Shown here: piece by piece, positions 868-38,715 of the stretch
How positions within the stretch are numbered: the first letter of the stretch is position 1
Layout: every line of letters starts with the position of its first letter
Source: an uncultured Actinomycetota bacterium
GTDB lineage: Bacteria > Actinomycetota > Actinomycetes > Propionibacteriales > Nocardioidaceae
Direction: 5' to 3'
Length of the DNA: 64,000 nt
Assembly: GCA_963815585.1 (NCBI GenBank)
Contig: CAWFHJ010000020.1
Coordinates: forward strand, 88,673 to 152,672
Position numbers and translations under genes: made by a program
The notes under the pieces: model-generated
What the model saw: only the letters and a program-made list of their open reading frames with translations
Databases searched by the model: none
What the model was told of the DNA's origin: nothing

Positions 868-1433
868 TGCGACACACAGATTTCGAGAGTCTGTACCAGA
901 GCGACCCGGACCCGTTCCAGGTGGCGACGAGCTGGTACGAGAGACGCAAGGAAGCCGTGCTGCTCGCCGGCCTCGCCAGCAGCCGCTACTCGACGGCCTG
1001 GGATGCCGCCTGCGGTACCGGTCACCTGTCATGGGCGCTGACCGGTCGCTGTGACCTGGTGCTCGCCACGGACTCGTCGGCAACGGCCGTGGCACTCACC
1101 GAGCAGAGGACGGCGGACTCGCCGGGCGTGCGCTGCTCGGTCTCCCGGCTTCCGGATCGCGCCGCGGGGGCTGACCAGGCCGAGCTGACGGTGGTCTCCG
1201 AGGTTCTGTACTACCTCCCGGACGAGGCACGGGCCCGGACGCTGGCGATGCTGGCGGACCAGCGGGGAGAGCTGGTCTGCGCCCATTGGCGGCACCACCC
1301 CGACGACGCCTACCTGAGCGGCGAAGCGGCCAACGAGGAGCTCGACAAGGAGCTGACGGCTGCCGGCTGGACGACGGCCTGGCGGCACGATGACACGGAC
1401 TTCGTGATGGCCGGCTGGCGGTGCGGACCGTGA
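867..1433 (+). CDS. NodS-like SAM-dependent methyltransferase
   Basis: ATG 867 overlaps the upstream stop (TGATG); DPF...SWYERRK and DAACGTG motif I. Confidence 0.85.
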   Translation: MRHTDFESLYQSDPDPFQVATSWYERRKEAVLLAGLASSRYSTAWDAACGTGHLSWALTGRCDLVLATDSSATAVALTEQRTADSPGVRCSVSRLPDRAAGADQAELTVVSEVLYYLPDEARARTLAMLADQRGELVCAHWRHHPDDAYLSGEAANEELDKELTAAGWTTAWRHDDTDFVMAGWRCGP

Positions 1434-2405
1434 CGCGGTCGTACGACGTGCTCCCCCCGCCGCTGTCGCTTCCACGCGATCCCGAGCGGCACGACGCAGG
1501 GCCGGCGTCCCAGCGGTCGGCGATCCTCGCCCTGGCAGCGGGGACCGCCGCCGATGCGGCATGGGGACCGCTCCTGGAGTACCTGATCGCCCTGGGACGC
1601 ACCGACGTCCCGCTCGCCCGGCTGACCGAGGGACACGTCGACGCGATGCGCATCCTGCACCAGGCCGGCAGCGCACCCGTCCCTGACGCGGCGTACGCGG
1701 TGTGGGCGTCGCGTTCGCAGGCCACGGGCCTCGCCGGGCGACGCGACGGCCGCATGTGGGTGCTCGACGGAACACTGCGGTTCGCCTCGGGAGCCGGTGT
1801 CGTCGACCGCGCACTCGTCCCCGTGTGGCTGGACACCGGGACGCATGTCCTGCTCGACCTCGAGGTGAAGGACTGGACCTTCGACACCGGGCTCTGGCGC
1901 ACCCGGGCCATGGAGCAGAGCCGCTCGCACCAGGTGTCCCTGTCGGGCCACCGGGTCGAGGCCGCCGAGGTCGGGCAACCGGACTTCTACCTCGACCGAC
2001 CGGGATTCTTCCCCGGCGGTGCCGGGGTCGCGGCAGTGTGGACCGGCGGTGCTGGTCGGGTCGTCGACCTGCTCTCCCGGGCGGTCCCGGAGGCGCGCCG
2101 GACCGAGGCGCAGGTTGCCCGCTTCGGTCGTGCCCGCATCGACCTGGCGACCGCCGCCGCCGTGGTACGGGACAGCGCCCCGCGCCTTGCGGACGGACCG
2201 GTCGAGCAGCTGCGGATCACCTCGACGTACGTCCGGTCGGGAGTCGCCCAGGCCGTCCGTCGCATCGCTGGGTGAGGCGCGCACCCTGGCCGGACCTGCC
2301 GGACTCGCGCTCGACGAGGACCTGACCCGCGCCATCGACGACCTGAGCCTGTTCGTGGCCCAGCACAACGAGGATGCCGATGCCGCGTGGGTGGGCGGCC
2401 TGTGA
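1430..2405 (+). pseudogene. Acyl-CoA dehydrogenase-like protein, frameshifted at GGG 2270-2272
   Basis: LARLTEGHVDA, LDGTLRFASGA and RTRAMEQSRS motifs; stop at 2273-2275, but the C-terminus (EARTLAGPAG...DDLSLFVAQH) continues in the +1 frame to TGA 2405, which overlaps the next start. Confidence 0.75.
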
Positions 2406-3136
2406 CCGAGGTGGTGGTGGCCATCCCGGCGCACGACGAGGTCGCCGAGATCGGTCCCTGTCTCGACCACGTCGCACGTGCCGTGGCGCAGGCGACCGAG
2501 AGTGGTGCCTGCACCCGGGTGTCGATCGTCGTCGCGAGTCATCGCTGCACCGACGAGACCGCCGAGCGGGCCGAGGCGGTCCTCGCCGACGTACCGGGCG
2601 AGCACCGCGTGCTGCGCGACCAGACCTCCCGCTCCGTCGGTCAGGTGCGTAGCGGCATGGTGGTCGAGATGGTCGGGCACACCACGTCCCCGCCGGACGA
2701 GGTCTGGCTGCTGAGCACCGACGCCGACTCGCACGTTCCCCCCACCTGGATCACCGGGATGCTCAGCGGGGCGCGAGACCGAGGGGCGGTTGCTGCGGCG
2801 GGCCTGGTCTCGCTCCGCGACTGGCTGGCACCGGCACCGGCTCGCGCCCGCTACGCGGCGATCATCGAGGCGGGACTCGCGCCGACCGGCCATGCGCACG
2901 TCTACGGCGCCAACCTGGCCGTCCGTCTCGACGCGTACCTGCGAGTGGGCGGATTCCGCGACGTGCACGCCGAGGACCAGGACCTCGTGGATCGGCTGCG
3001 CGCCGCCGGCGAGCCGGTGGCAGCCCTCTCCACCCCGGTGGTGAGCACGTCCGCACGACACGACGGTCGCGCCGAGGGTGGACTGTCCGCGCTTCTCGGC
3101 CGGCTGGTGCTCCCGGCCGTGGCCGAGCTGGGCTAG
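2402..3136 (+). CDS. Glycosyltransferase family 2
   Basis: VAIPAHDE, STDADS (DxD), GANL, GGF and EDQDL motifs; GTGA overlap with the upstream gene. Confidence 0.9.
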   Translation: MTEVVVAIPAHDEVAEIGPCLDHVARAVAQATESGACTRVSIVVASHRCTDETAERAEAVLADVPGEHRVLRDQTSRSVGQVRSGMVVEMVGHTTSPPDEVWLLSTDADSHVPPTWITGMLSGARDRGAVAAAGLVSLRDWLAPAPARARYAAIIEAGLAPTGHAHVYGANLAVRLDAYLRVGGFRDVHAEDQDLVDRLRAAGEPVAALSTPVVSTSARHDGRAEGGLSALLGRLVLPAVAELG

Positions 3137-3954
3137 GCGCCGGCCACCTTGCGCTGGGCGGCGGCGTCGGGCTCGTCCTGTGCCTTCGCGTCGGCCTCGG
3201 CCTGGCGGGCGATCTCGGTGGCGTCGACCTGGTGACCCGAGGAGGTGACGCCGGTCTGGGTGAGGTCGATGGTCCGCACCGTACGACGGGCAGCGGGCTT
3301 GGAGACGTACGTCGGCAGGGTGAGGGGCAGCGGGTCCCAGAGCGAGCCGTCGTCCTCAGCCTCGGGCGGGAGCGGGACTGCGACGGTCTCGCCGGCGGTC
3401 TCGACAGGCTCGACCAGCGAGGACGTCTCGACAGGCTCGACCAGCGAGGAGGTCTCGACAGGCTCGACCAGCGAGGACGTCTCGACAGGCTCCACCAGCG
3501 AGGACGTCTCGACGGGCCCAACGACCGGGGGAGCAGCGGCGCGGCGACGCACCGGGGCAGCCCTGCGCACCATCAGCCGGCACATCACCAGCCAGGTCAC
3601 GACCAGCACGCCGGGGATGGCGGGCGTCCAGGCGGGCAGGTAGGCGAGGTAGGCCGCGACGCCGGTGCCGGCGGTCACCAGCAGCAGCAGGCCGAGCACG
3701 CGGCGACGGCGACGGGCAGGGCTCGACGGCTGGCGCGTACGACGCGTGCGCGGTCCGGCAGGCTCGGCCACGGCCGGCGGGGTCAGCAGCGCCTTCATCG
3801 TGGCGGGGGTCCGCTCGAGCACGCGCATGGTCTCGGAGAAGCTGTCGACGGGACGGCTGGCCGCGATCTCCTCGTGGTGCCGCAGCGCCTTCGGGATGAG
3901 GTAGGCAGCCCACCCGACGGCGAGCACGACGAAGATCAGTCCGGACAGGTCCAC
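3133..3954 (-). CDS. GlpR/SepX-like membrane protein (cell division associated)
   Basis: N-terminal TM segment then ...FSETMRVL, RRRRR-TM pair, disordered region with WDPLPLTLPTYVSKPAARRTVRTIDL; sits next to GNAT/moeA as in other actinobacteria; start reassigned to GTG 3954. Confidence 0.75.
   Translation of the reverse strand: MDLSGLIFVVLAVGWAAYLIPKALRHHEEIAASRPVDSFSETMRVLERTPATMKALLTPPAVAEPAGPRTRRTRQPSSPARRRRRVLGLLLLVTAGTGVAAYLAYLPAWTPAIPGVLVVTWLVMCRLMVRRAAPVRRRAAAPPVVGPVETSSLVEPVETSSLVEPVETSSLVEPVETSSLVEPVETAGETVAVPLPPEAEDDGSLWDPLPLTLPTYVSKPAARRTVRTIDLTQTGVTSSGHQVDATEIARQAEADAKAQDEPDAAAQRKVAGA
3397..3513. repeat. 27-bp tandem repeat (4 units plus a partial) of the REP-like motif GTCTCGACAGGCTCGACC, in frame in the CDS, encoding (SSLVEPVET)x4
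   Basis: Units start at 3398, 3425, 3452, 3479 and 3506. Confidence 0.95.
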
Positions 3955-16851: not shown

Positions 16852-16924
16852 GCCCCAGTAGCTCAGTGGATAGAGCAGCCGCCTCCTAAGCGAAAGGTCG
16901 CCAGTTCGACTCTGGCCTGGGGCA
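16852..16924 (+). tRNA. tRNA-Arg (anticodon CCT)
   Basis: GCCCCAG/CTGGGGC acceptor stem, GCTC/GAGC D-stem, loop CTCCTAA, GCCAG-TTCGACT-CTGGC T-arm; no encoded CCA. Confidence 0.93.
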
Positions 16925-31234: not shown

Positions 31235-31678
31235 TCAGTCCCCCAGCGTCTTGTTGTAGCGGGCGAGCGCGGTCACGAACGCATCCAGCTCGCCGTCGGT
31301 CCAGCCGGACAGCCGCTCGTCGAGCAGCTTGCGCCGCGACCGCGACGTGTCCGCGAGCCGGCGCCGACCCTCGTCGGTCACCCCCAGGGTCATCGCCCGA
31401 CCGTCAGCCGGGTCCGGTGTGCGCTCGACGAATCCGAGGTCCACCAGCTGCTGCACCTGGCGGCTGATCGCACCCTTGTCGATCCCGAACTCCTCGACCA
31501 GCGTCGAGGCCCGCTTCGGACCGCTCTCGGCGACGTTGGCCAGGATGAAGTACGCCGCCGGCTGCAGCTCTTCGTGCACCTCGCGGGCGCGCTCCATCAC
31601 CCTCCGACGGATCCGCCGGATCAGGGTGCCCATCTCCAGCTCGAGCTGGTTGACGAGGTGTGCCTTGTCGTCGGTCAT
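31235..31678 (-). CDS. MarR family regulator
   Basis: IDKGAISRQVQQL, ERTPDPADGRA. Confidence 0.92.
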   Translation of the reverse strand: MTDDKAHLVNQLELEMGTLIRRIRRRVMERAREVHEELQPAAYFILANVAESGPKRASTLVEEFGIDKGAISRQVQQLVDLGFVERTPDPADGRAMTLGVTDEGRRRLADTSRSRRKLLDERLSGWTDGELDAFVTALARYNKTLGD

Positions 31679-33300
31679 CGCGGGGAGCCCTCGGTGGCCG
31701 GCTCGGGGACGACCTCGTCCTCGCGCTGGATGGTGGTCCGCAGCGGGACCTCCTTGATGAACAGCACGCAGAGCAGGGCCACGACCGCGAACGGCACGGC
31801 GATCAGGAACAGGTGCCCGGTCGCATCACCGAACGCGCCCTCGAAGACCGCACGGATCGGGCCGGGCAGGGTGGACAGGTCGGGGATCTGGTGGCTGCTG
31901 TGCGCGTCCTCGGAGACCCCCATCGACGCGAGCTTGTCGGTCACCGTCGAGGCGACCTGGGTGCTCAGCACCGCGCCCAGGGCGCTGACGCCGATCGAGC
32001 CACCCATCGAGCGGAAGAACGACACCACCGAGCTGGCGGCGCCCATGTCGCTCTGCGCGGTGTTGTTCTGCACGGCGAGGACCAGGTTCTGCATGGTGGC
32101 GCCGAGACCGAGGCCCATCACGGCCATCGAGGCGCCGACGTACACGAGCGGCGTGGACGCGTCGATCCGGGACAGCAGCGCAAGGCCGACGATGACCGTG
32201 GCCATGCCGCCGACCAGGTAGCGCTTCCAGACCCCCGTGCTGGAGATGATCCGGCCGGTCACGATGCTCGAGACCAGCAGGCCGCCGACCATCGAGATCG
32301 ACATCAGCCCGGCGTGGGTCGGGCTCATGCCACGGGCGAGCTGGAAGTACTGCGAGAGGTAGACGGTCGAGCCGAACATCGCGACACCGACCATGATCGA
32401 GGCGGCCGTCGCCAGGGACGTGGTGCGGTCCCGGAAGAGGCGCATCGGGATCACCGGCTCGCGGGCGACCTTCATCTCGACGTACACCGCGGCGGCGAGC
32501 ACGGCGAGCCCGGCGGCCACCAGCAGGCCGGAGGTGGCGGAGAGCCAGTCGAAGTGCTGGCCGGCCAGGGAGACCCAGACCAGGAGGAAGGAGACGCCGG
32601 CGACCAGCAGGGTGGCACCGAGGTAGTCGATGTGCACCTCACGCTTGATGACCGGCAGGTGCAGCGTCTTCTGCAGTACGACGAACGCGAGCGCCGCGAC
32701 CGGGATGCCGATGAAGAAGCACCAGCGCCAGCCGATCGAGTCCACGACCAGGCCACCGATGAGCGGACCGCTGACCGTGGCCAGCGCGAACGTCGCGCCG
32801 ATGTAGCCGCTGTAGCGACCCCGCTCGCGCGGGCTCACCATCGAGGCGATCACGACCTGCACGAGGGCGGTCAGGCCACCGACGCCGAGGCCCTGGATCG
32901 CGCGGGCGCCGATCAGCACGCCCATGTTGGGCGCGAACCCGGCCACCAGCGAGCCGGCCACGAAGATCACCAGCGCGGACTGCACGAGGACCTTCTTGTC
33001 GAACTGGTCGGACAGCTTGCCCCAGACCGGTGTCGACGCGGTCATCGTGAGCAGCGTGGCGACGACCACCCAGGTGTAGCCGGACTGGCTGCCCTGGAGG
33101 TCGGTGATGATCCGCGGGAGGGCGTTGGACACCACGGTGCTGGACAGCATCGCGACGAACATCGCGAGGAGGAGGCCGCTGAGCGCCTCGAGCACCTCGC
33201 GGTGCGACATCTGCCCGGAGCTCTCGACAGGGGAAGCGTCGAGGACGGCGGTGCCGGCGGTGGACTGGTGGGACACGGAAGCTCGATTCACGGTCGTCAT
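31675..33300 (-). CDS. MFS drug efflux transporter (EmrB/QacA, DHA2)
   Basis: 14-TM pattern, WGKLSDQFDKK, RERGRYSG, WRWCFFI. Confidence 0.93.
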   Translation of the reverse strand: MTTVNRASVSHQSTAGTAVLDASPVESSGQMSHREVLEALSGLLLAMFVAMLSSTVVSNALPRIITDLQGSQSGYTWVVVATLLTMTASTPVWGKLSDQFDKKVLVQSALVIFVAGSLVAGFAPNMGVLIGARAIQGLGVGGLTALVQVVIASMVSPRERGRYSGYIGATFALATVSGPLIGGLVVDSIGWRWCFFIGIPVAALAFVVLQKTLHLPVIKREVHIDYLGATLLVAGVSFLLVWVSLAGQHFDWLSATSGLLVAAGLAVLAAAVYVEMKVAREPVIPMRLFRDRTTSLATAASIMVGVAMFGSTVYLSQYFQLARGMSPTHAGLMSISMVGGLLVSSIVTGRIISSTGVWKRYLVGGMATVIVGLALLSRIDASTPLVYVGASMAVMGLGLGATMQNLVLAVQNNTAQSDMGAASSVVSFFRSMGGSIGVSALGAVLSTQVASTVTDKLASMGVSEDAHSSHQIPDLSTLPGPIRAVFEGAFGDATGHLFLIAVPFAVVALLCVLFIKEVPLRTTIQREDEVVPEPATEGSPR

Positions 33301-33393
33301 AAGGTTGACGTCGGCAACTATATTCCCCGTGCTCTCCCGCGTCGACTTTCGGCGGGGTCGGCTGCGTCACATCCTCCCCGGCGACAGATGCAG

Positions 33394-33640
33394 CGACCCG
33401 CAGGCGGGGCCTTGATGGGCCCTGCACCGGTGGATAGGCCGGTCGCCTGCGGGTCGGGTGACTGCTTCTGGATTCGCCAGCAGCGCCTGCACGGCTCTCG
33501 TCGTGGACGGGGCTGGCTGGTGTGCTGCTAGCGGGCAGCCACCTCACGCATCCGATAAGAACTCATTCTTCGGACCACCTCCTTTCCCGTGTACGACGAG
33601 CGTAGGCCGACGCCGGGCCGCCAACAAGAGCTTTTCGAAT
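33394..33640 (-). ncRNA. Candidate structured RNA carrying a 12-codon sORF
   Basis: GAAAGGAGGTG SD, sORF 33566-33528, long-range GGUGGCUGC/GCAGUCACC pairing, terminal 13-bp stem with two internal hairpins. Confidence 0.6.
33528..33566 (-). CDS. sORF MSSYRMREVAAR (12 aa)
   Basis: ATG 33566 to TAG 33528, preceded by the full anti-SD complement AAAGGAGGTG (33576-33585). Confidence 0.6.
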   Translation of the reverse strand: MSSYRMREVAAR

Positions 33641-33658
33641 GGCTGCCATCATCGGCTG

Positions 33659-34915
33659 GTGGCGAAGTCTCGGTGGCGACTGCTCTCCACCGTCGCCACC
33701 GACATCCGGCCGCTGCGCGTCTCCGCGCCGTTCCGCCGGCTCTGGTTCGGCAACTCGGTCGCCCAGCTCGGCCAGCAGATGACCGCGGTGACGATCGCGA
33801 TCCAGGTCTACGCGATCACGCACAGCTCCTTCGCCGTCGGCGTGGTCGGCGCCTGTGCGCTGGTGCCGCTGGTCGGCTTCGGTCTGTACGGCGGCGCGGT
33901 GGCCGACGCGATGGACCGCCGCAAGCTCGCGCTCGGCGCGTCCTCGCTCGCGTGGGTGTGCTCGATCGCCCTTGCTGCACAGGGTTTCCTGCACAACACG
34001 CACGTCGGCGTGCTCTACGCGCTGGTCGCTCTGCAGTCGGTGGCGTTCGCCTTGAACAGTCCTGCGCGCAACGCGATGATCGCTCGGCTGCTTCCCCGCG
34101 ATCTGCTCCCTGCTGCGTCTGCGCTGAACATGGCGTCGTTCAACCTCGGGTTCACCCTGGGCCCGATGTTCGGTGCACTTGCCGTGAAGTTCGGTGGCTT
34201 CGGCACGGCGTACGCGATCGACGTGGTGACCTTCACGGCCGCGATGTACGCCCTCCTCCGGCTGCCGCCGATGCCGCCCGAGGACGGCAGCCCGCGGCCC
34301 GGGCTCAAGGCCGTGATCGACGGGCTGCGCTACCTGCGCTCGTCACCCAACGTGCGGATGACGTTCGTCGTCGACCTCTGCGCGATGGTGCTCGCGCAGC
34401 CGCGCGCGCTGTTCCCGGCGATGGCGGCCAAGGTGTACGGCGGCGGCGCCGCGACGGTCGGCGTGCTGCAGGCGGCCCCGGCGTTCGGGTCGCTGCTGGC
34501 GTTCCTGGTCTCCGGCTGGATCAGCCGGGTGCGCCTGCAGGGGGCCGCGGTGGTGATCGCGGTCCTGGGCTACGGGCTGGCCGTCGGCTCGGTCGGGATC
34601 ACCTCGATGCTCTGGATCGGCGCGATCGGGCTGGCGTTCTCCGGCGCCTGCGACATGGTGAGCGCGGCGTACCGCTCGACGATCCTGCAGGTCGCCGCCC
34701 CCGACCAGATGCGCGGTCGCCTCCAGGGCGTGTTCATCGTGGTCGTCGCGGGCGGCCCACGAGCCGGCGACTTCCTGGCCGGCTCCGCCGGCGACCTCAT
34801 CGGCGAGCGCCTCGCCCTGGTCCTCGGTGGTCTCGCCTGCGTCGCCGGCGTCCTCCTCGCCGTGCTCCGCTGGCCCGGCTTCCTCCGGTACGACGCCCGC
34901 CGCCCCACGCCCTGA
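33659..34915 (+). CDS. MFS transporter (EntS/MFS_3-like)
   Basis: FRRLW, GAVADAMDRRK, 12 TM segments, MRGRLQGVFIVVVAGGPR. Confidence 0.9.
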   Translation: MAKSRWRLLSTVATDIRPLRVSAPFRRLWFGNSVAQLGQQMTAVTIAIQVYAITHSSFAVGVVGACALVPLVGFGLYGGAVADAMDRRKLALGASSLAWVCSIALAAQGFLHNTHVGVLYALVALQSVAFALNSPARNAMIARLLPRDLLPAASALNMASFNLGFTLGPMFGALAVKFGGFGTAYAIDVVTFTAAMYALLRLPPMPPEDGSPRPGLKAVIDGLRYLRSSPNVRMTFVVDLCAMVLAQPRALFPAMAAKVYGGGAATVGVLQAAPAFGSLLAFLVSGWISRVRLQGAAVVIAVLGYGLAVGSVGITSMLWIGAIGLAFSGACDMVSAAYRSTILQVAAPDQMRGRLQGVFIVVVAGGPRAGDFLAGSAGDLIGERLALVLGGLACVAGVLLAVLRWPGFLRYDARRPTP

Positions 34916-34987
34916 CGGGGATAGTCCCGGCCATTTGACACCTGCCAGGCGCGTCATGAGGTGCCGTTTGGCCGGGACTACCCCCGA

Positions 34988-36982
34988 TCAGCCCACGACA
35001 GCAGCAGCGAACTGCGCGTTGTAGAGGCGCGCGTAGGCACCGTCGGCGGCAAGCAGGGACTCGTGGGTGCCCTGCTCGACGATCGCGCCGTCCTCCATCA
35101 CCAGGATCAGGTCGGCGTCGCGGATCGTGGACAGCCGGTGGGCGATCACGAAGGACGTCCGGTCGGAGCGCAGCGCGGCCATCGCCTGCTGCACGAGCAG
35201 CTCCGTGCGCGTGTCCACCGACGACGTCGCCTCGTCCAGGATCAGCAGCGCTGGGGCGGTCAGGAAGGCGCGGGCAATTGTGACCAGCTGGCGCTCACCG
35301 GCAGAGAGGTTCGAGCCGTCCTCGTCGATCACCGTGTCGTAGCCGTCGGGCAACGAGTGCACGAAGCGGTCCACGAACGTCGCCCGTGCGGCGGCCAGGA
35401 TCTCCTCCTCGGTGGCGTCCGGACGGCCGTAGGCGATGTTGTCGCGGATCGAGCCGCCGAACAGCCAGGTGTCCTGCAGCACCATCCCGATCTGCCCGCG
35501 CAGCGCCTCTCGCGGCATCGCGGTGATGTCGACGCCGTCGATCGTGATCCGGCCGGCGCCGATCTCGTAGAACCGCATCACCAGGTTGACCAGCGTGGTC
35601 TTGCCGGCGCCGGTCGGGCCGACGATCGCCACGGTCTGCCCGGGGCTCGCCACCAGCGACAGGTCCTCGATCAGCGGCCGCTCCTCGTCGTAGGAGAAGG
35701 AGACGTGCTCGAACGCCACCTCCCCCCGTCGTACGGCGGGCGCACCCGTCGGCGCGGGGTCGGCCGGCTCCTCGTCGGCGTCGAGCAGCTCGAAGACGCG
35801 CTCGGCCGACGCGACGCCGGACTGGAGCAGGTTCATCATCGAGGCGACCGTGGTCAGCGGCTGGGTGAACTGGCGGGTGTACTGCACGAACGCCTGCACG
35901 TCACCCAGTGACAAGGACCCGCTCGAGACCCGCAGCGCGCCGACGACGGCGATCACGACGTAGTTGATGTTCCCGATGAACATCATCGTCGGCATGATCA
36001 GCCCGGAGACGAACTGGGCACCGAAGCTCACCCGGAACAGCTCGTCGTTCTGCTCCGCGAACGTGCGCTCCACCTCACCCTGACGGTTGTAGACCTTGAC
36101 CAGCGCGTGGCCGGAGAAGGCCTCCTCGATCTGACCGTTGAGCTGGCCGGTGCGGCGCCACTGCTGGATGAACTGGCCCTGCGAGCGCTTCATGATCGCC
36201 CGCGTGACGTAGATCGAGATCGGCACCGAGACCAGCGCGATCACCGCGAGCAGCGGCGAGATCCAGATCATCATCGCGAGCACCGCGACGACCGTCATCA
36301 GCGACGTCATCAGCTGGCTCATCGTCTGCTGCAGCGTCTGGCTGACGTTGTCGATGTCGTTGGTGACGCGGCTCAGCAGCTCGCCGCGCGGCGAGCGGTC
36401 GAAGTAGCCGAGCGGCAGCCGGTTGATCTTGTCCTCGACGTCCTGGCGCATCCGCCGGACAGTGTTCTGGACGACGCCGTTGAGCACGTAGCCCTGCACC
36501 CAGCCGAGCAGCGACGCGGCGGCGTAGACCGCGAGCACCAGCAGCAGCACGTCGCCGACGGCGCCGAAGTCGACACCGCGGCCAGGGACCACGTGGTCCA
36601 TCGAGGACAGCAACGTGGCGAGCTTGTCCTCGCCGCGGTCACGGAGGTCCTGGACGGCCTGCGCCTGGGTGACCCCTGCCGGCAGGTTGCGGCTGAACAG
36701 GCCCGAGAACACCAGGTCGGTCGCGTGGCCGAGGATGCGGGGGCCCGTCGACATCATCGCGACGCTGGCCACACCGAGCACGACGACCCAGATCGCGCGG
36801 GCGCGGTCGGGGCGCATCCGCGCGACCAGACGCTTGGCGGACGGCCCGAAGGTCATCGCCTTCTGGCCGACCATCCCGCCGCCCATCGGGCCGCGTCCGG
36901 GTCCGCCGGGGCCGGCCTCGATCCGCTCGGTGGCCTTGAACCCGGCCTGGGGCTTGGGAGCGCTGCTCGTCTGCTCGCTCAT
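34988..36982 (-). CDS. ABC exporter ATP-binding/permease subunit
   Basis: TMD plus GPTGAGKT, LSAGERQ, ILDEATSSVD, IAHRLST. Confidence 0.96.
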   Translation of the reverse strand: MSEQTSSAPKPQAGFKATERIEAGPGGPGRGPMGGGMVGQKAMTFGPSAKRLVARMRPDRARAIWVVVLGVASVAMMSTGPRILGHATDLVFSGLFSRNLPAGVTQAQAVQDLRDRGEDKLATLLSSMDHVVPGRGVDFGAVGDVLLLVLAVYAAASLLGWVQGYVLNGVVQNTVRRMRQDVEDKINRLPLGYFDRSPRGELLSRVTNDIDNVSQTLQQTMSQLMTSLMTVVAVLAMMIWISPLLAVIALVSVPISIYVTRAIMKRSQGQFIQQWRRTGQLNGQIEEAFSGHALVKVYNRQGEVERTFAEQNDELFRVSFGAQFVSGLIMPTMMFIGNINYVVIAVVGALRVSSGSLSLGDVQAFVQYTRQFTQPLTTVASMMNLLQSGVASAERVFELLDADEEPADPAPTGAPAVRRGEVAFEHVSFSYDEERPLIEDLSLVASPGQTVAIVGPTGAGKTTLVNLVMRFYEIGAGRITIDGVDITAMPREALRGQIGMVLQDTWLFGGSIRDNIAYGRPDATEEEILAAARATFVDRFVHSLPDGYDTVIDEDGSNLSAGERQLVTIARAFLTAPALLILDEATSSVDTRTELLVQQAMAALRSDRTSFVIAHRLSTIRDADLILVMEDGAIVEQGTHESLLAADGAYARLYNAQFAAAVVG

Positions 36983-38715
36983 GCCGCCTCCTCCGCGCTC
37001 ATCTGGGAGCTGACGATCTCCTGGTAGGTCTCGCAGTCCGCCAGCAGCTCGTGGTGGGTGCCGCGGCCGACCACGCGCCCGTCCTCGAGCACGATGATCA
37101 TGTCGGCGTCGATGATCGTGGTGACCCGCTGCGCGACGATCAGCACGGTCGCGTCGGTCGTGGTCGGCTTGAGCGCGGCGCGCAGCCGGGCGTCGGTGGC
37201 GAGGTCGAGCGCCGAGAACGAGTCGTCGAACAGGTAGATCCCCGGCCGGCGGATCAGCGCCCGCGCGATCGCCAGCCGCTGCTTCTGGCCGCCGGAGAAG
37301 TTGGTGCCGCCCTGCGCCACCGTCGCGTCCAGGCCCTCGGGCATCGCTTCCACGAAGTCCCGGGCCTGCGCCACCTCCAGCGCCGCCCAGATCTCCTCCT
37401 CGGTGGCCGCGGGCCGACCGTGCAGGAGGTTGCTGCGGATCGTGCCGGAGAAGAGGTACGCCGTCTGCGGCACCAGCCCGAGCTGTTCCCAGAGCAGTTC
37501 CGGGTCGAGGCGTCGTACGTCGGTGCCGCCCACCTGGACGCTGCCGTCGGTGGCGTCGAAGAGCCGGGGCACCAGGTTGACCAGGGTGGACTTGCCGGCG
37601 CCCGTGGAGCCGATCACGGCGATGGTCTGGCCGGGGCGGGCGGAGAGCGAGATGTCGTGCAGAACCGGCTCGTCGGCGCCCGGGTAGGAGAACGTCACGT
37701 GCTGCAGGTCGAGCCAGCCGCGGCGGTCGGGGTCGGGCGTCTCCGGCACCTCGGGAGGTACGACGGAGGAGCGCGTGTCGAGCACCTCGCCGATCCGGTC
37801 GCCGCAGACCGAGGCCCGCGGCACCATCATCAGCATGAACGTCGCCATCATCACCGACATCAGGATCTGCATCAGGTAGGACAGGAACGCGGTCAGTGCG
37901 CCGACCTGCATCTGGCCGCTGTCGACGCGATGCCCGCCGAACCAGATCACCGCGACGCTGGAGACGTTCACGACCAGCATCACCAGCGGGAACATGGTCG
38001 CCATCCAGCGCCCGGCCTTCACGGCGACCTCGGTGAGGTCGTCGTTGGCGGTGCCGAACCGGCGGGCCTCGAAGGGCTCCCGCACGAACGCACGCACGAC
38101 ACGGATGCCGGTGATCTGCTCACGCAGCACGCGGTTGACCTCGTCGATCCGGGACTGCATCTTGCGGAAGTTCGGCACCATCCGGCTGACCACGAAGCCG
38201 ACGCTCAGGAACAACGCCGGCACCACGACAGCCAGGATCCAGCCGAGCCCGACGTCCTCGCGCAGCGCCATCACCACGCCGCCGACCATCATGATCGGCG
38301 CCGAGACGGCGATCGTGCAGGCCATCAGGACCAGCATCTGCACCTGCTGCACGTCGTTCGTCGTACGCGTGATCAGCGACGGCGCCCCGAAGTCCTGGAC
38401 CTCGCGCGTGGAGAACGTGCCGACCCGATGGAACAGCTCCGCGCGCACGTCGCGGCCGAACGACATCGCCGTCCGCGCGCCGAACCAGACCGCGGTGACC
38501 GAGCAGACGATCTGCACCAGCGAGACCGCCAGCATCATGCCGCCGGTGCGCACGATGTAGCCGGTGTCGCCGACGGTGATGCCCTTGTCGATGATGTCCG
38601 CGTTGAGGCTGGGCAGGTAGAGCATCGCGACGACGCCGACGAACTGCAGGACGACGACCGCGGTCAGGTAGGTGCGGTACGGCGCCAGCCGTTCGCGCAG
38701 GAGCGAGACGAGCAT
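36979..38715 (-). CDS. ABC exporter ATP-binding/permease subunit (heterodimer partner)
   Basis: TMD plus GSTGAGKS, FSGGQKQR, LFDDSFSALD, AQR (degenerate site). Confidence 0.96.
   Translation of the reverse strand: MLVSLLRERLAPYRTYLTAVVVLQFVGVVAMLYLPSLNADIIDKGITVGDTGYIVRTGGMMLAVSLVQIVCSVTAVWFGARTAMSFGRDVRAELFHRVGTFSTREVQDFGAPSLITRTTNDVQQVQMLVLMACTIAVSAPIMMVGGVVMALREDVGLGWILAVVVPALFLSVGFVVSRMVPNFRKMQSRIDEVNRVLREQITGIRVVRAFVREPFEARRFGTANDDLTEVAVKAGRWMATMFPLVMLVVNVSSVAVIWFGGHRVDSGQMQVGALTAFLSYLMQILMSVMMATFMLMMVPRASVCGDRIGEVLDTRSSVVPPEVPETPDPDRRGWLDLQHVTFSYPGADEPVLHDISLSARPGQTIAVIGSTGAGKSTLVNLVPRLFDATDGSVQVGGTDVRRLDPELLWEQLGLVPQTAYLFSGTIRSNLLHGRPAATEEEIWAALEVAQARDFVEAMPEGLDATVAQGGTNFSGGQKQRLAIARALIRRPGIYLFDDSFSALDLATDARLRAALKPTTTDATVLIVAQRVTTIIDADMIIVLEDGRVVGRGTHHELLADCETYQEIVSSQMSAEEAA

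Follow-up and report, generated by a model that had tools for sequence, protein, structure and literature searches.

The window analyzed here, a 64-kb stretch of actinobacterial DNA (contig CAWFHJ010000020.1), contains a gap of 358 bp between two divergent transporter genes, and on the minus strand of this gap lies a small RNA (sRNA) gene that is almost certainly a copy of Ms_IGR-5 (Rfam family RF02471, "Actinobacteria sRNA"). The RNA carries a 12-codon open reading frame (ORF) behind a very strong Shine-Dalgarno sequence (SD), and both are embedded in a pseudoknotted fold (Table 1). A first-pass annotation of the same DNA had described the gap (as 360 bp between divergent MFS genes) and had proposed that it held a candidate new RNA system, with a comparison against Rfam as one of the checks. 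When the window was scanned with the covariance models of Rfam 15, RF02471 matched at 33592..33388 (minus strand) with 112.1 bits (E = 4e-26; gathering score, 45), and the match spanned model positions 1-184 of 184. Since this full-length match is far above the gathering score, the RNA is not new, and the claim of novelty fell to the very check that had been proposed for it. Apart from one tRNA, no other Rfam family was matched in the 64 kb.

Ms_IGR-5 was reportedly first described by Li et al. in 2013 in Mycobacterium smegmatis, through a pull-down with a foreign Hfq. In Streptomyces lividans, it is listed as an sRNA validated by RNA-seq (PMC8079986), in Streptomyces avermitilis both ends of its sRNA transcription unit have been mapped (PMC8780764), and in Mycobacterium abscessus and M. 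smegmatis ribosome footprints have been reported on the family (PMC4974804). The literature surveyed, with the original 2013 description outside the survey, assigned no function to Ms_IGR-5 and made no mention of a conserved ORF, a maximal SD, or the two pairings described below as P0 and the pseudoknot.

Homologues were collected with two sequence patterns. Genomes were scanned with AAGGAGGTGGTCC-N(84-114)-GCAGTCACCCG, which leaves the ORF unconstrained and gave at least 120 loci, and metagenomes were scanned with GAGGTGGCTGC-N(45-75)-GCAGTCACCCG, which leaves the SD, the start codon and codons 1 to 7 unconstrained and gave at least 120 further loci. All homologue counts given below (121 genome-set sequences and 105 usable metagenome matches, about 225 in total) are among the matches listed. 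The genome scan returned members of Mycobacterium, Mycolicibacterium, Nocardioides, Marmoricola, Pseudonocardiaceae, Streptosporangiaceae, Streptomyces, Pseudactinotalea, Ruaniaceae, Motilibacteraceae, and Sporichthyaceae, and all named homologues belonged to the Actinomycetota. A covariance model of our own, R1, scored 165 bits on the window RNA and was used to build alignments of 101 genome matches (A2) and 100 metagenome matches (A3). Because the same SD, ORF, and stems recurred in about 225 homologues, the features of the window copy go beyond chance. The homologues scanned with R1 had a single RNA copy per locus, apart from a soil contig (L176) with two inverted copies (1336-1544, minus strand, and 2721-2926, plus strand) that lay about 1.2 kb apart and had identical ORFs. 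A weak second R1 match (28.9 bits) was seen at 3415-3553 (minus strand) of L073, an uncultured actinobacterial contig with mycobacterium-like gene order; it lay about 1.7 kb from the true copy and could be explained by chance or by decay of a paralogue.

The very strong SD that had been noted on the minus strand was confirmed at its coordinates (AAAGGAGGTG at 33585..33576), and the 13-mer AAGGAGGTGGTCC (33584..33572, minus strand) occurred only once in the 64 kb. Pairing was assessed against the 3' tail of 16S rRNA, which we take to read ...GGAUCACCUCCUUU / GGAUCACCUCC. In the metagenome set, where the SD was unconstrained, GGAGGUG(G/A)UC(C/U) was present in every real homologue, and both variants retained pairing with the tail (GGAUCACCUCC), the G.U pair becoming A-U and the C-G pair becoming U.G. 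An SD of 11 to 13 nt complementary to the 16S tail, together with the start codon, 12 codons, and the stop codon, was present in all of the real homologues listed but one. A local GUCC/GGAC hairpin at the start codon was also considered and rejected in favor of the pseudoknot, as it showed only a one-sided change from G-C to G.U. The SD variants (G/A and C/U) lose pairing with GGAC, and the G-to-A change is uncompensated there, with A opposite C in three of four cases; the local hairpin is therefore not the cause of the SD conservation.

The 12-codon ORF, which the first-pass annotation had placed behind this SD and whose conservation it had named as a check, was found at the same position and in about 225 homologues. 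In the genome set, 121 of 121 sequences had ATG, GTG, or TTG 4 to 7 nt after GGUCC, followed by 12 codons (13 in L085, through an in-frame 3-nt CGT insertion), and the same ORF was present in 103 of the 105 usable metagenome matches. One of the two exceptions (L157) was a chance match without an SD, and the other (L125) had a 1-nt shift. L125 (343-550, plus strand) was, among the matches listed, the only homologue in which the stretch of codons 2 to 4 was 1 nt short and the frame was broken, which could reflect a metagenome sequencing error or a natural loss of the ORF. Other length changes sat in the spacer between SD and start codon; within the ORF, there were only the L085 insertion and the L125 deletion.

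When the 148 distinct nucleotide versions were pooled, the start codon was ATG in 69, TTG in 53, GTG in 26, and CTG in 0, and the stop codon was TAG in 140, TAA in 7, and TGA in 1. No in-frame stop was found in codons 2 to 5 of the 148 versions, compared to 15.5 +/- 2.8 expected (3000 column shuffles, minimum 7), and the other two frames of this stretch contained 10 and 48 stops. Codons 2 to 4 have a G+C content of only 30%, compared to about 70% for the remaining RNA, and codon 4 mostly starts with T (TTA, TAT, TCT, TCA, TAC, and others) and is never TAA, TAG, or TGA. The sequences are related, and these figures therefore overstate independence. Judged by these comparisons, selection keeps the ORF open, and we consider it likely that the ribosome site and the ORF are functional.

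The minimum-free-energy fold of the window RNA (-101 kcal/mol; z = -3.75 compared to 200 shuffles) included both elements that had been drawn in the first-pass annotation, i.e., the long-range stem GGUGGCUGC/GCAGUCACC (H1) and, at the coordinates given for it, a 13-bp stem (P3) enclosing two 5-bp hairpins. P0 has the general form CAC(G/A) at the 5' end paired with (C/U)GUG, and all four of its pairs were formed in 205 of the 225 sequences. The fourth pair was G-C in 58 and A-U in 28 sequences of A2 (40 and 23, respectively, in A3), and the helix occurred as CACG/CGUG, CACA/UGUG, CGCG/CGCG, CGCA/UGCG, and, in Streptomyces, CCGA/UCGG. An extension of H1 by a U.G and a G-C pair was dropped for P0, which covaries. 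In the pseudoknot, (N)GGA(C/U)(N) pairs with the loop of the first 3'-domain hairpin, which contains (N)(G/A)UCC(N). Its central pair, which involves the second base of codon 6, was C-G in 113 and U-A in 7 sequences of the genome set with zero exceptions, and C-G in 84 and U-A in 10 sequences of the independent metagenome set, while the adjacent pair was G-C (33), A-U (23), or U-A (13). The window RNA is a U-A case (GGAUG/UAUCC), and L095, the closest by ORF among the genome-set matches listed, has C-G. Both P0 and the pseudoknot, as predicted from this covariation, are newly recognized pairings in Ms_IGR-5.

Of the 121 homologues, 117 had H1 in their minimum-free-energy fold; approximately 96% of cells were paired, and the stem was lengthened by covariation of codon 11 (third base) with the nucleotide 5' of GCAG (G-C 26, C-G 18, U-A 12). 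Its 3' strand, GCAGUCACC, was fixed in both search patterns, and the invariance of this strand is not independent evidence. P2, also part of the fold of the window RNA, had changes on both sides in six of its ten pairs across homologues. P3 was 98.5-99.4% paired, with changes on both sides in 10 of 10 core pairs in A2 and in 9 of 13 pairs in A3. For the conserved joiner GAAUYCC between P2 and H1, the mutual-information scan gave no pairing partner. The covariation score of the whole structure was reached by 0 of 500 shuffles, and when the partners were slid by 1 to 3 columns, the score dropped 3- to 10-fold and pairing fell from 87% to 30-47%.

The Rfam consensus of RF02471 and the window RNA are alike in block order, P2, P3, H4, actinobacterial host, and intergenic position. 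They differ in the first stem, where the consensus pairs GGUGGU, the 3' part of the SD, with GCUGCC, whereas H1, P0, and the pseudoknot are favored here. This first stem (window 33572-33580 / 33534-33539, minus strand) conflicts with these better-supported pairings; codon 11 covaries at its third base with the nucleotide 5' of GCAG instead, and a G at this third position would be mismatched in the Rfam stem. The curated Rfam structure of Ms_IGR-5 may need revision.

The peptide sequence was then read against the fold. Its C-terminal half is x-T-[RCS]-E-V-[AT]-[AV]-x in nearly all members, with the Arg/Cys/Ser alternation at residue 7 following the P0 partner base and the Thr/Met/Ile alternation at residue 6 following the pseudoknot partner base, and residues 2-4 and 12 vary freely. 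The third positions of codons 8 to 10 (GAG GUG GCU) never vary, and the invariance of Glu-Val-Ala therefore points to nucleotide-level selection. According to the alignments, codons 5 to the stop are fixed by RNA pairing (pseudoknot, P0, H1, and P2).

Table 1. Features of the Ms_IGR-5 locus in the window; relative positions are counted from the A of the start codon (+1)
Feature	Window position	Strand	Relative position	Remarks
Ms_IGR-5 small RNA, ~205 nt	33388..33592	-		Predicted 5' end, A33592 (A of ACAC)
A-rich stretch	33635..33632	-		Upstream of the sRNA -35
sRNA promoter	-35 TTGTTG, 33627..33622; -10 TACGCT, 33604..33599	-		17-nt spacer
P0 5' strand, CACG	33588..33591	-	-25..-22	Pairs with CGUG, 33548..33545; from mutual-information scan
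Extended SD, AAAGGAGGUGGUCC	33572..33585	-	-18..-6 (SD)	Complementary to 16S 3' tail, one G.U
ORF, ATG..TAG	33528..33566	-		ATG at 33566; peptide MSSYRMREVAAR + stop
Pseudoknot 5' half, GGAUG	33549..33553	-	+14..+18	Codons 5-6; pairs with UAUCC, hairpin loop 33436..33432
P0 3' strand, CGUG	33545..33548	-	+19..+22	Codon 7 and first base of codon 8
H1 5' strand, GGUGGCUGC	33535..33543	-	+24..+32	Codons 8-11
Stop codon, TAG	33530..33528	-	+37..+39	
P2 hairpin	33475..33533	-		5' strand CGCUAGCAGC, 33533..33524 (codon 12 + stop); 3' strand GCUGCUGGCG, 33484..33475
Unpaired joiner, AAUCCAGAA	33466..33474	-		Family consensus GAAUYCC, conserved in alignments A1-A3
H1 3' strand, GCAGUCACC	33457..33465	-		UCACC common to 16S anti-SD region
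3' domain	33394..33456	-		P3 13-bp stem, 33456..33444 with 33406..33394
Hairpin H4	33443..33426	-		Inside P3; loop CCUAUCCA carries pseudoknot partner
Hairpin H5	33422..33407	-		Inside P3; missing in mycobacteria
MFS-marR promoter-like site, TCGACG-17-TATAGT	33345..33317	-		Separate from the RNA
Palindrome GTTGCCGACGTCAAC	33318..33304	-		Perfect; overlaps -10 and likely transcription start of MFS-marR operon
MFS_1 gene (DHA2)	31675..33300	-		
MarR gene	31235..31678	-		After MFS_1
MFS_3 gene	33659-34915	+		Probable GTG start at 33659
tRNA gene	16852-16924	+		Sole other Rfam match in window

Ms_IGR-5 appears to be a stand-alone gene with its own housekeeping-type promoter, and its independent transcription is seen in relatives. 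The layout AAA..TTG / ~17 nt / TAnnnT / ~7 nt / ACAC was kept upstream of all 121 genome-set copies, and A33592, the 5' end expected from the promoter, is the exact start of the Rfam model match. The neighbors differ by order, with mycobacteria, Nocardioides, and Streptomyces each having other genes. In mycobacteria, the RNA is preceded by a class IV aminotransferase gene and in many species followed by a convergent fatty-acid-binding-protein-like gene, a neighborhood that we take to be the Rv0812/Rv0813c region. Literature searches for a Mycobacterium tuberculosis name of the RNA with ncRv0812/0813-type names gave no paper, and those combining Rv0812/Rv0813c with sRNA turned up nothing but an unrelated small ORF that precedes Rv0813c. 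In Nocardioides, ABC exporter genes are found upstream of the RNA, often with MFS-MarR downstream, and the order sRNA-MFS-MarR was seen in at least 14 Nocardioidaceae loci.

Discrete transcripts were found in RNA data of relatives. In runs from Streptomyces cultures, contigs were confined to the RNA (L101, 3593..3779), a soil metatranscriptome gave a 190-nt contig on the same locus (3573..3737), and one mycobacterial RNA run gave a 227-nt contig on the RNA. These contigs, 190-227 nt in length, were all confined to the RNA. Transcripts in relatives end right after P3, in which no U-tract terminator was found. The RNA-run contigs at the Mycobacterium colombiense locus were weakly informative, one run covering everything at uniform depth, and the search for RNA runs of the window organism gave only partial matches, in soil DNA metagenomes. 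Together, the conserved promoter, the differing neighbors, and the transcripts of about 200 nt supported the earlier suggestion of a stand-alone transcript. Short contigs of the Streptomyces-type RNA (L101, 3566-3779; runs X49, X50, X51, X53) were present not only in culture RNA-seq but also in metatranscriptomes from soil and roots, which suggests that the RNA is abundant in natural communities.

The fold has a sole long unpaired stretch, A/U-rich and running from about -21 to +13, which includes the SD and the start codon. An initiating ribosome covers a length of mRNA about equal to this stretch, which holds an SD of 11 to 13 nt as well as the start codon and therefore fits the footprint of one initiating ribosome. 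Our overall best reading, to which we give a probability of roughly 55%, is that Ms_IGR-5 is a ribosome-engaging sRNA with a pseudoknotted scaffold that would be remodeled by translation. The RNA of about 205 nt folds into a compact pseudoknotted scaffold, which would expose one ribosome docking site; a ribosome would dock on the unpaired stretch and read the 12 codons. Reading to the stop would melt P0, the pseudoknot, H1, and P2, and the stop codon would bar the ribosome from the 3' domain. The signal would then be the act of translation and not the peptide. Given that the SD, the start, the open frame, and the stop have all been retained within the pseudoknotted fold, the peptide is probably less important than ribosome binding and translation. 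Translation could transiently free the GAAUYCC-GCAGUCACC strand, with target pairing, SD self-inhibition, and control of RNA lifetime as possible outcomes, or it could set the activity or lifetime of the RNA by translational capacity; GAAUYCC and GCAGUCACC are candidate seeds for target base-pairing. That translation acts as a switch is a tentative proposal. The first-pass annotation had listed a translation-coupled RNA switch among its explanations, and this gives the best fit to the comparative data, although its mechanism stays conjectural.

Several observations weigh against this interpretation. Half of the start codons are TTG or GTG, and the fixed distance from the start to the structure could stem from RNA geometry and not from the reading frame. 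Translation of the ORF, and the effect of that translation, are what we infer from comparing sequences. No conserved alternative structure emerged when a ribosome-sized stretch was kept unpaired during folding. The published ribosome footprints extend to clearly non-coding RNAs, e.g., 6C, and the authors of that study warn that ribonucleoprotein particles co-sediment with ribosomes (PMC4974804). Since both search patterns fix some conserved blocks, part of the invariance of GCAGUCACCCG, as well as that of the SD in the genome set, stems from the way the sequences were retrieved. The sequences are also related, and the shuffle statistics therefore overstate their independence.

A rival reading is that Ms_IGR-5 is a ribosome decoy or a non-translated RNA, a sponge or regulator whose SD-like stretch would bind the 16S tail or C-rich targets with no productive translation, the ORF being incidental. 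An SD usually has less complementarity than 11 to 13 nt, and such a long match would make the ribosome clear the start site more slowly; in addition, RNA pairing accounts for all conserved codons, and the published footprints are not specific to coding RNAs. We consider such a decoy unlikely, given that a start codon was present in all but 2 of the 226 matches listed, one of the two being a chance match, that CTG was never seen as a start despite the G+C-rich genomes, and that in-frame stops were absent from the A/U-rich codons 2 to 5 (0 compared to about 15 expected). The stop codon, moreover, is retained as TAG, TAA, or TGA while the adjacent P2 pairs covary freely. That the 12-residue peptide itself is the functional product, either of a small-protein gene or of a dual-function sRNA with an active peptide, is improbable. 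The ORF is kept across several orders, and the C-terminal motif is found in nearly all members, but the invariant third positions of codons 8 to 10 point to selection on nucleotides, the alternations at codons 6 and 7 follow the RNA partner bases, residues 2-4 and 12 are unconstrained, and 12 residues are too short for independent folding. A full-text literature search with the peptide gave irrelevant matches only, and within the part of the eLife 2022 supplementary file that was covered, the tables gave only unrelated proteins.

The first-pass annotation had also raised a leader attenuator for drug efflux and a type I toxin-like locus. As a cis leader or attenuator of the MFS(DHA2)-marR operon, the RNA would let ribosome progress decide on read-through past P3; it lies 88 nt ahead of the MFS start and on the same strand, its P3 has no U tract, and the sRNA-MFS-MarR order recurs in the Nocardioidaceae loci mentioned above. 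However, the MFS gene is equipped with a promoter-like site and a palindromic operator of its own, the gene that follows the RNA is often convergent in mycobacteria and a different one in Streptomyces, the transcripts of relatives stop right after P3, and the constrained folds showed no antiterminator pairing. We regard this explanation as very improbable and, because of the conserved promoter, the variable neighbors, and the discrete transcripts, reject the notion that the RNA works in general as an efflux leader. Such a role is unlikely for the window copy as well, where the tie to the efflux neighbors appears to be one of shared gene order and not of regulation. A type I toxin-antitoxin-like locus, to which the small ORF with a strong SD in a structured RNA might point, has a negligible chance of being correct. 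The peptide MSSYRMREVAAR has 12 residues, is hydrophilic (charged/polar) without a hydrophobic stretch, and varies at residues 2-4, whereas such toxins are hydrophobic or membrane-active and usually have 20-60 residues; there was no opposite-strand promoter-like site within the RNA and no antisense RNA family in the Rfam scan, and the RNA is a single-copy core-genome element kept across orders. Ms_IGR-5 as a ribosome-engaging sRNA thus remains our preferred reading.

The genes around the window copy were compared with those of other loci by clustering of six-frame ORFs with a filter on third-position G+C content (GC3), by which spurious ORFs of high G+C content were removed. The MFS-marR operon had been described with its own TATAGT -10 and a palindromic operator, and both TCGACG-17-TATAGT and GTTGCCGACGTCAAC were indeed read there; the palindrome is predicted to be, probably, the MarR autoregulatory operator. 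In many Nocardioides loci (e.g., L105, L060, and L014), the RNA lies directly 3' of an ABC exporter gene pair, and in the window MFS_3 intervenes between the ABC exporter genes and the RNA (33659-38000). Among the loci listed, efflux genes cluster around the RNA in Nocardioides-type loci only. The window was 87% identical over 6.9 kb to two soil contigs (L130 and L223), and its ABC-exporter genes were approximately 83% identical to those of Nocardioides, so the source bacterium is Nocardioides-like.

Ms_IGR-5 is among the few sRNAs common to mycobacteria, Streptomyces, Nocardioides, Pseudonocardia, and Micrococcales relatives. The conserved SD, start codon, frame, and stop codon, their embedding in a pseudoknot, and the unpaired stretch of one footprint point to the ribosome as its partner, and with a family-wide ORF, a maximal SD, P0, and the pseudoknot, Ms_IGR-5 is therefore open to experiment. 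If the reading as a ribosome-engaging sRNA is true, a translation-gated RNA would be added to actinobacterial regulation, in a group with major pathogens and antibiotic producers. A bolder idea, which we think rather doubtful, is that Ms_IGR-5 is a dedicated ribosome-engaging RNA across the class Actinomycetes, in which a pseudoknotted scaffold would present a near-perfect 30S docking site of exactly one footprint, followed by a 12-codon "test track". It is conceivable that translation of such a track would be a sensor or timer of translational capacity, and conceivable, too, that the RNA titrates the anti-SD tail and shifts translation to leaderless mRNAs, of which these bacteria have many. 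If this bolder idea is true, Ms_IGR-5 would be a kind of riboregulator without a characterized counterpart.

Among known systems, leader-peptide attenuators (ermC, tnaC, trp/his) share with the mechanism proposed here that translation of a short ORF remodels downstream RNA. Attenuators, however, depend on a conserved gene that follows in cis and on alternative terminator/antiterminator hairpins, and neither is present for Ms_IGR-5; in the homologues listed, no conserved same-strand downstream gene was found, the downstream genes varying between orders and often being convergent. Dual-function sRNAs (SgrS/SgrT, RNAIII/delta-haemolysin, and SR1/SR1P) resemble Ms_IGR-5 in combining an sRNA with a ribosome-binding site and a conserved short ORF. 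The SgrS/SgrT, RNAIII, and SR1 peptides have 26-43 residues or more and are conserved at the protein level, whereas the Ms_IGR-5 codons are fixed by RNA pairing, and compared to these systems its peptide looks like a by-product. The mRNA-like domain of tmRNA is another parallel, with an ORF of about 10-12 codons between pseudoknots and a stop codon in a hairpin, in a stable RNA that engages ribosomes. Ms_IGR-5 differs from it in having no tRNA-like domain (there was no Rfam match to tmRNA or tRNA families in 32800-34200 at E up to 10) and in having its own SD and start codon, for normal initiation and not trans-translation. In the translational operators of the Escherichia coli ribosomal-protein mRNAs rpsO/S15 and alpha operon/S4, the ribosome-binding site lies in a loop closed by a pseudoknot in which a hairpin loop pairs with the opening codons, and the 30S subunit binds in competition or in cooperation with the pseudoknot fold. 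This presentation of the ribosome-binding site by a pseudoknot resembles that in Ms_IGR-5; however, those operators precede a long regulated gene and bind its product, whereas in Ms_IGR-5 the reading frame ends after 12 codons.

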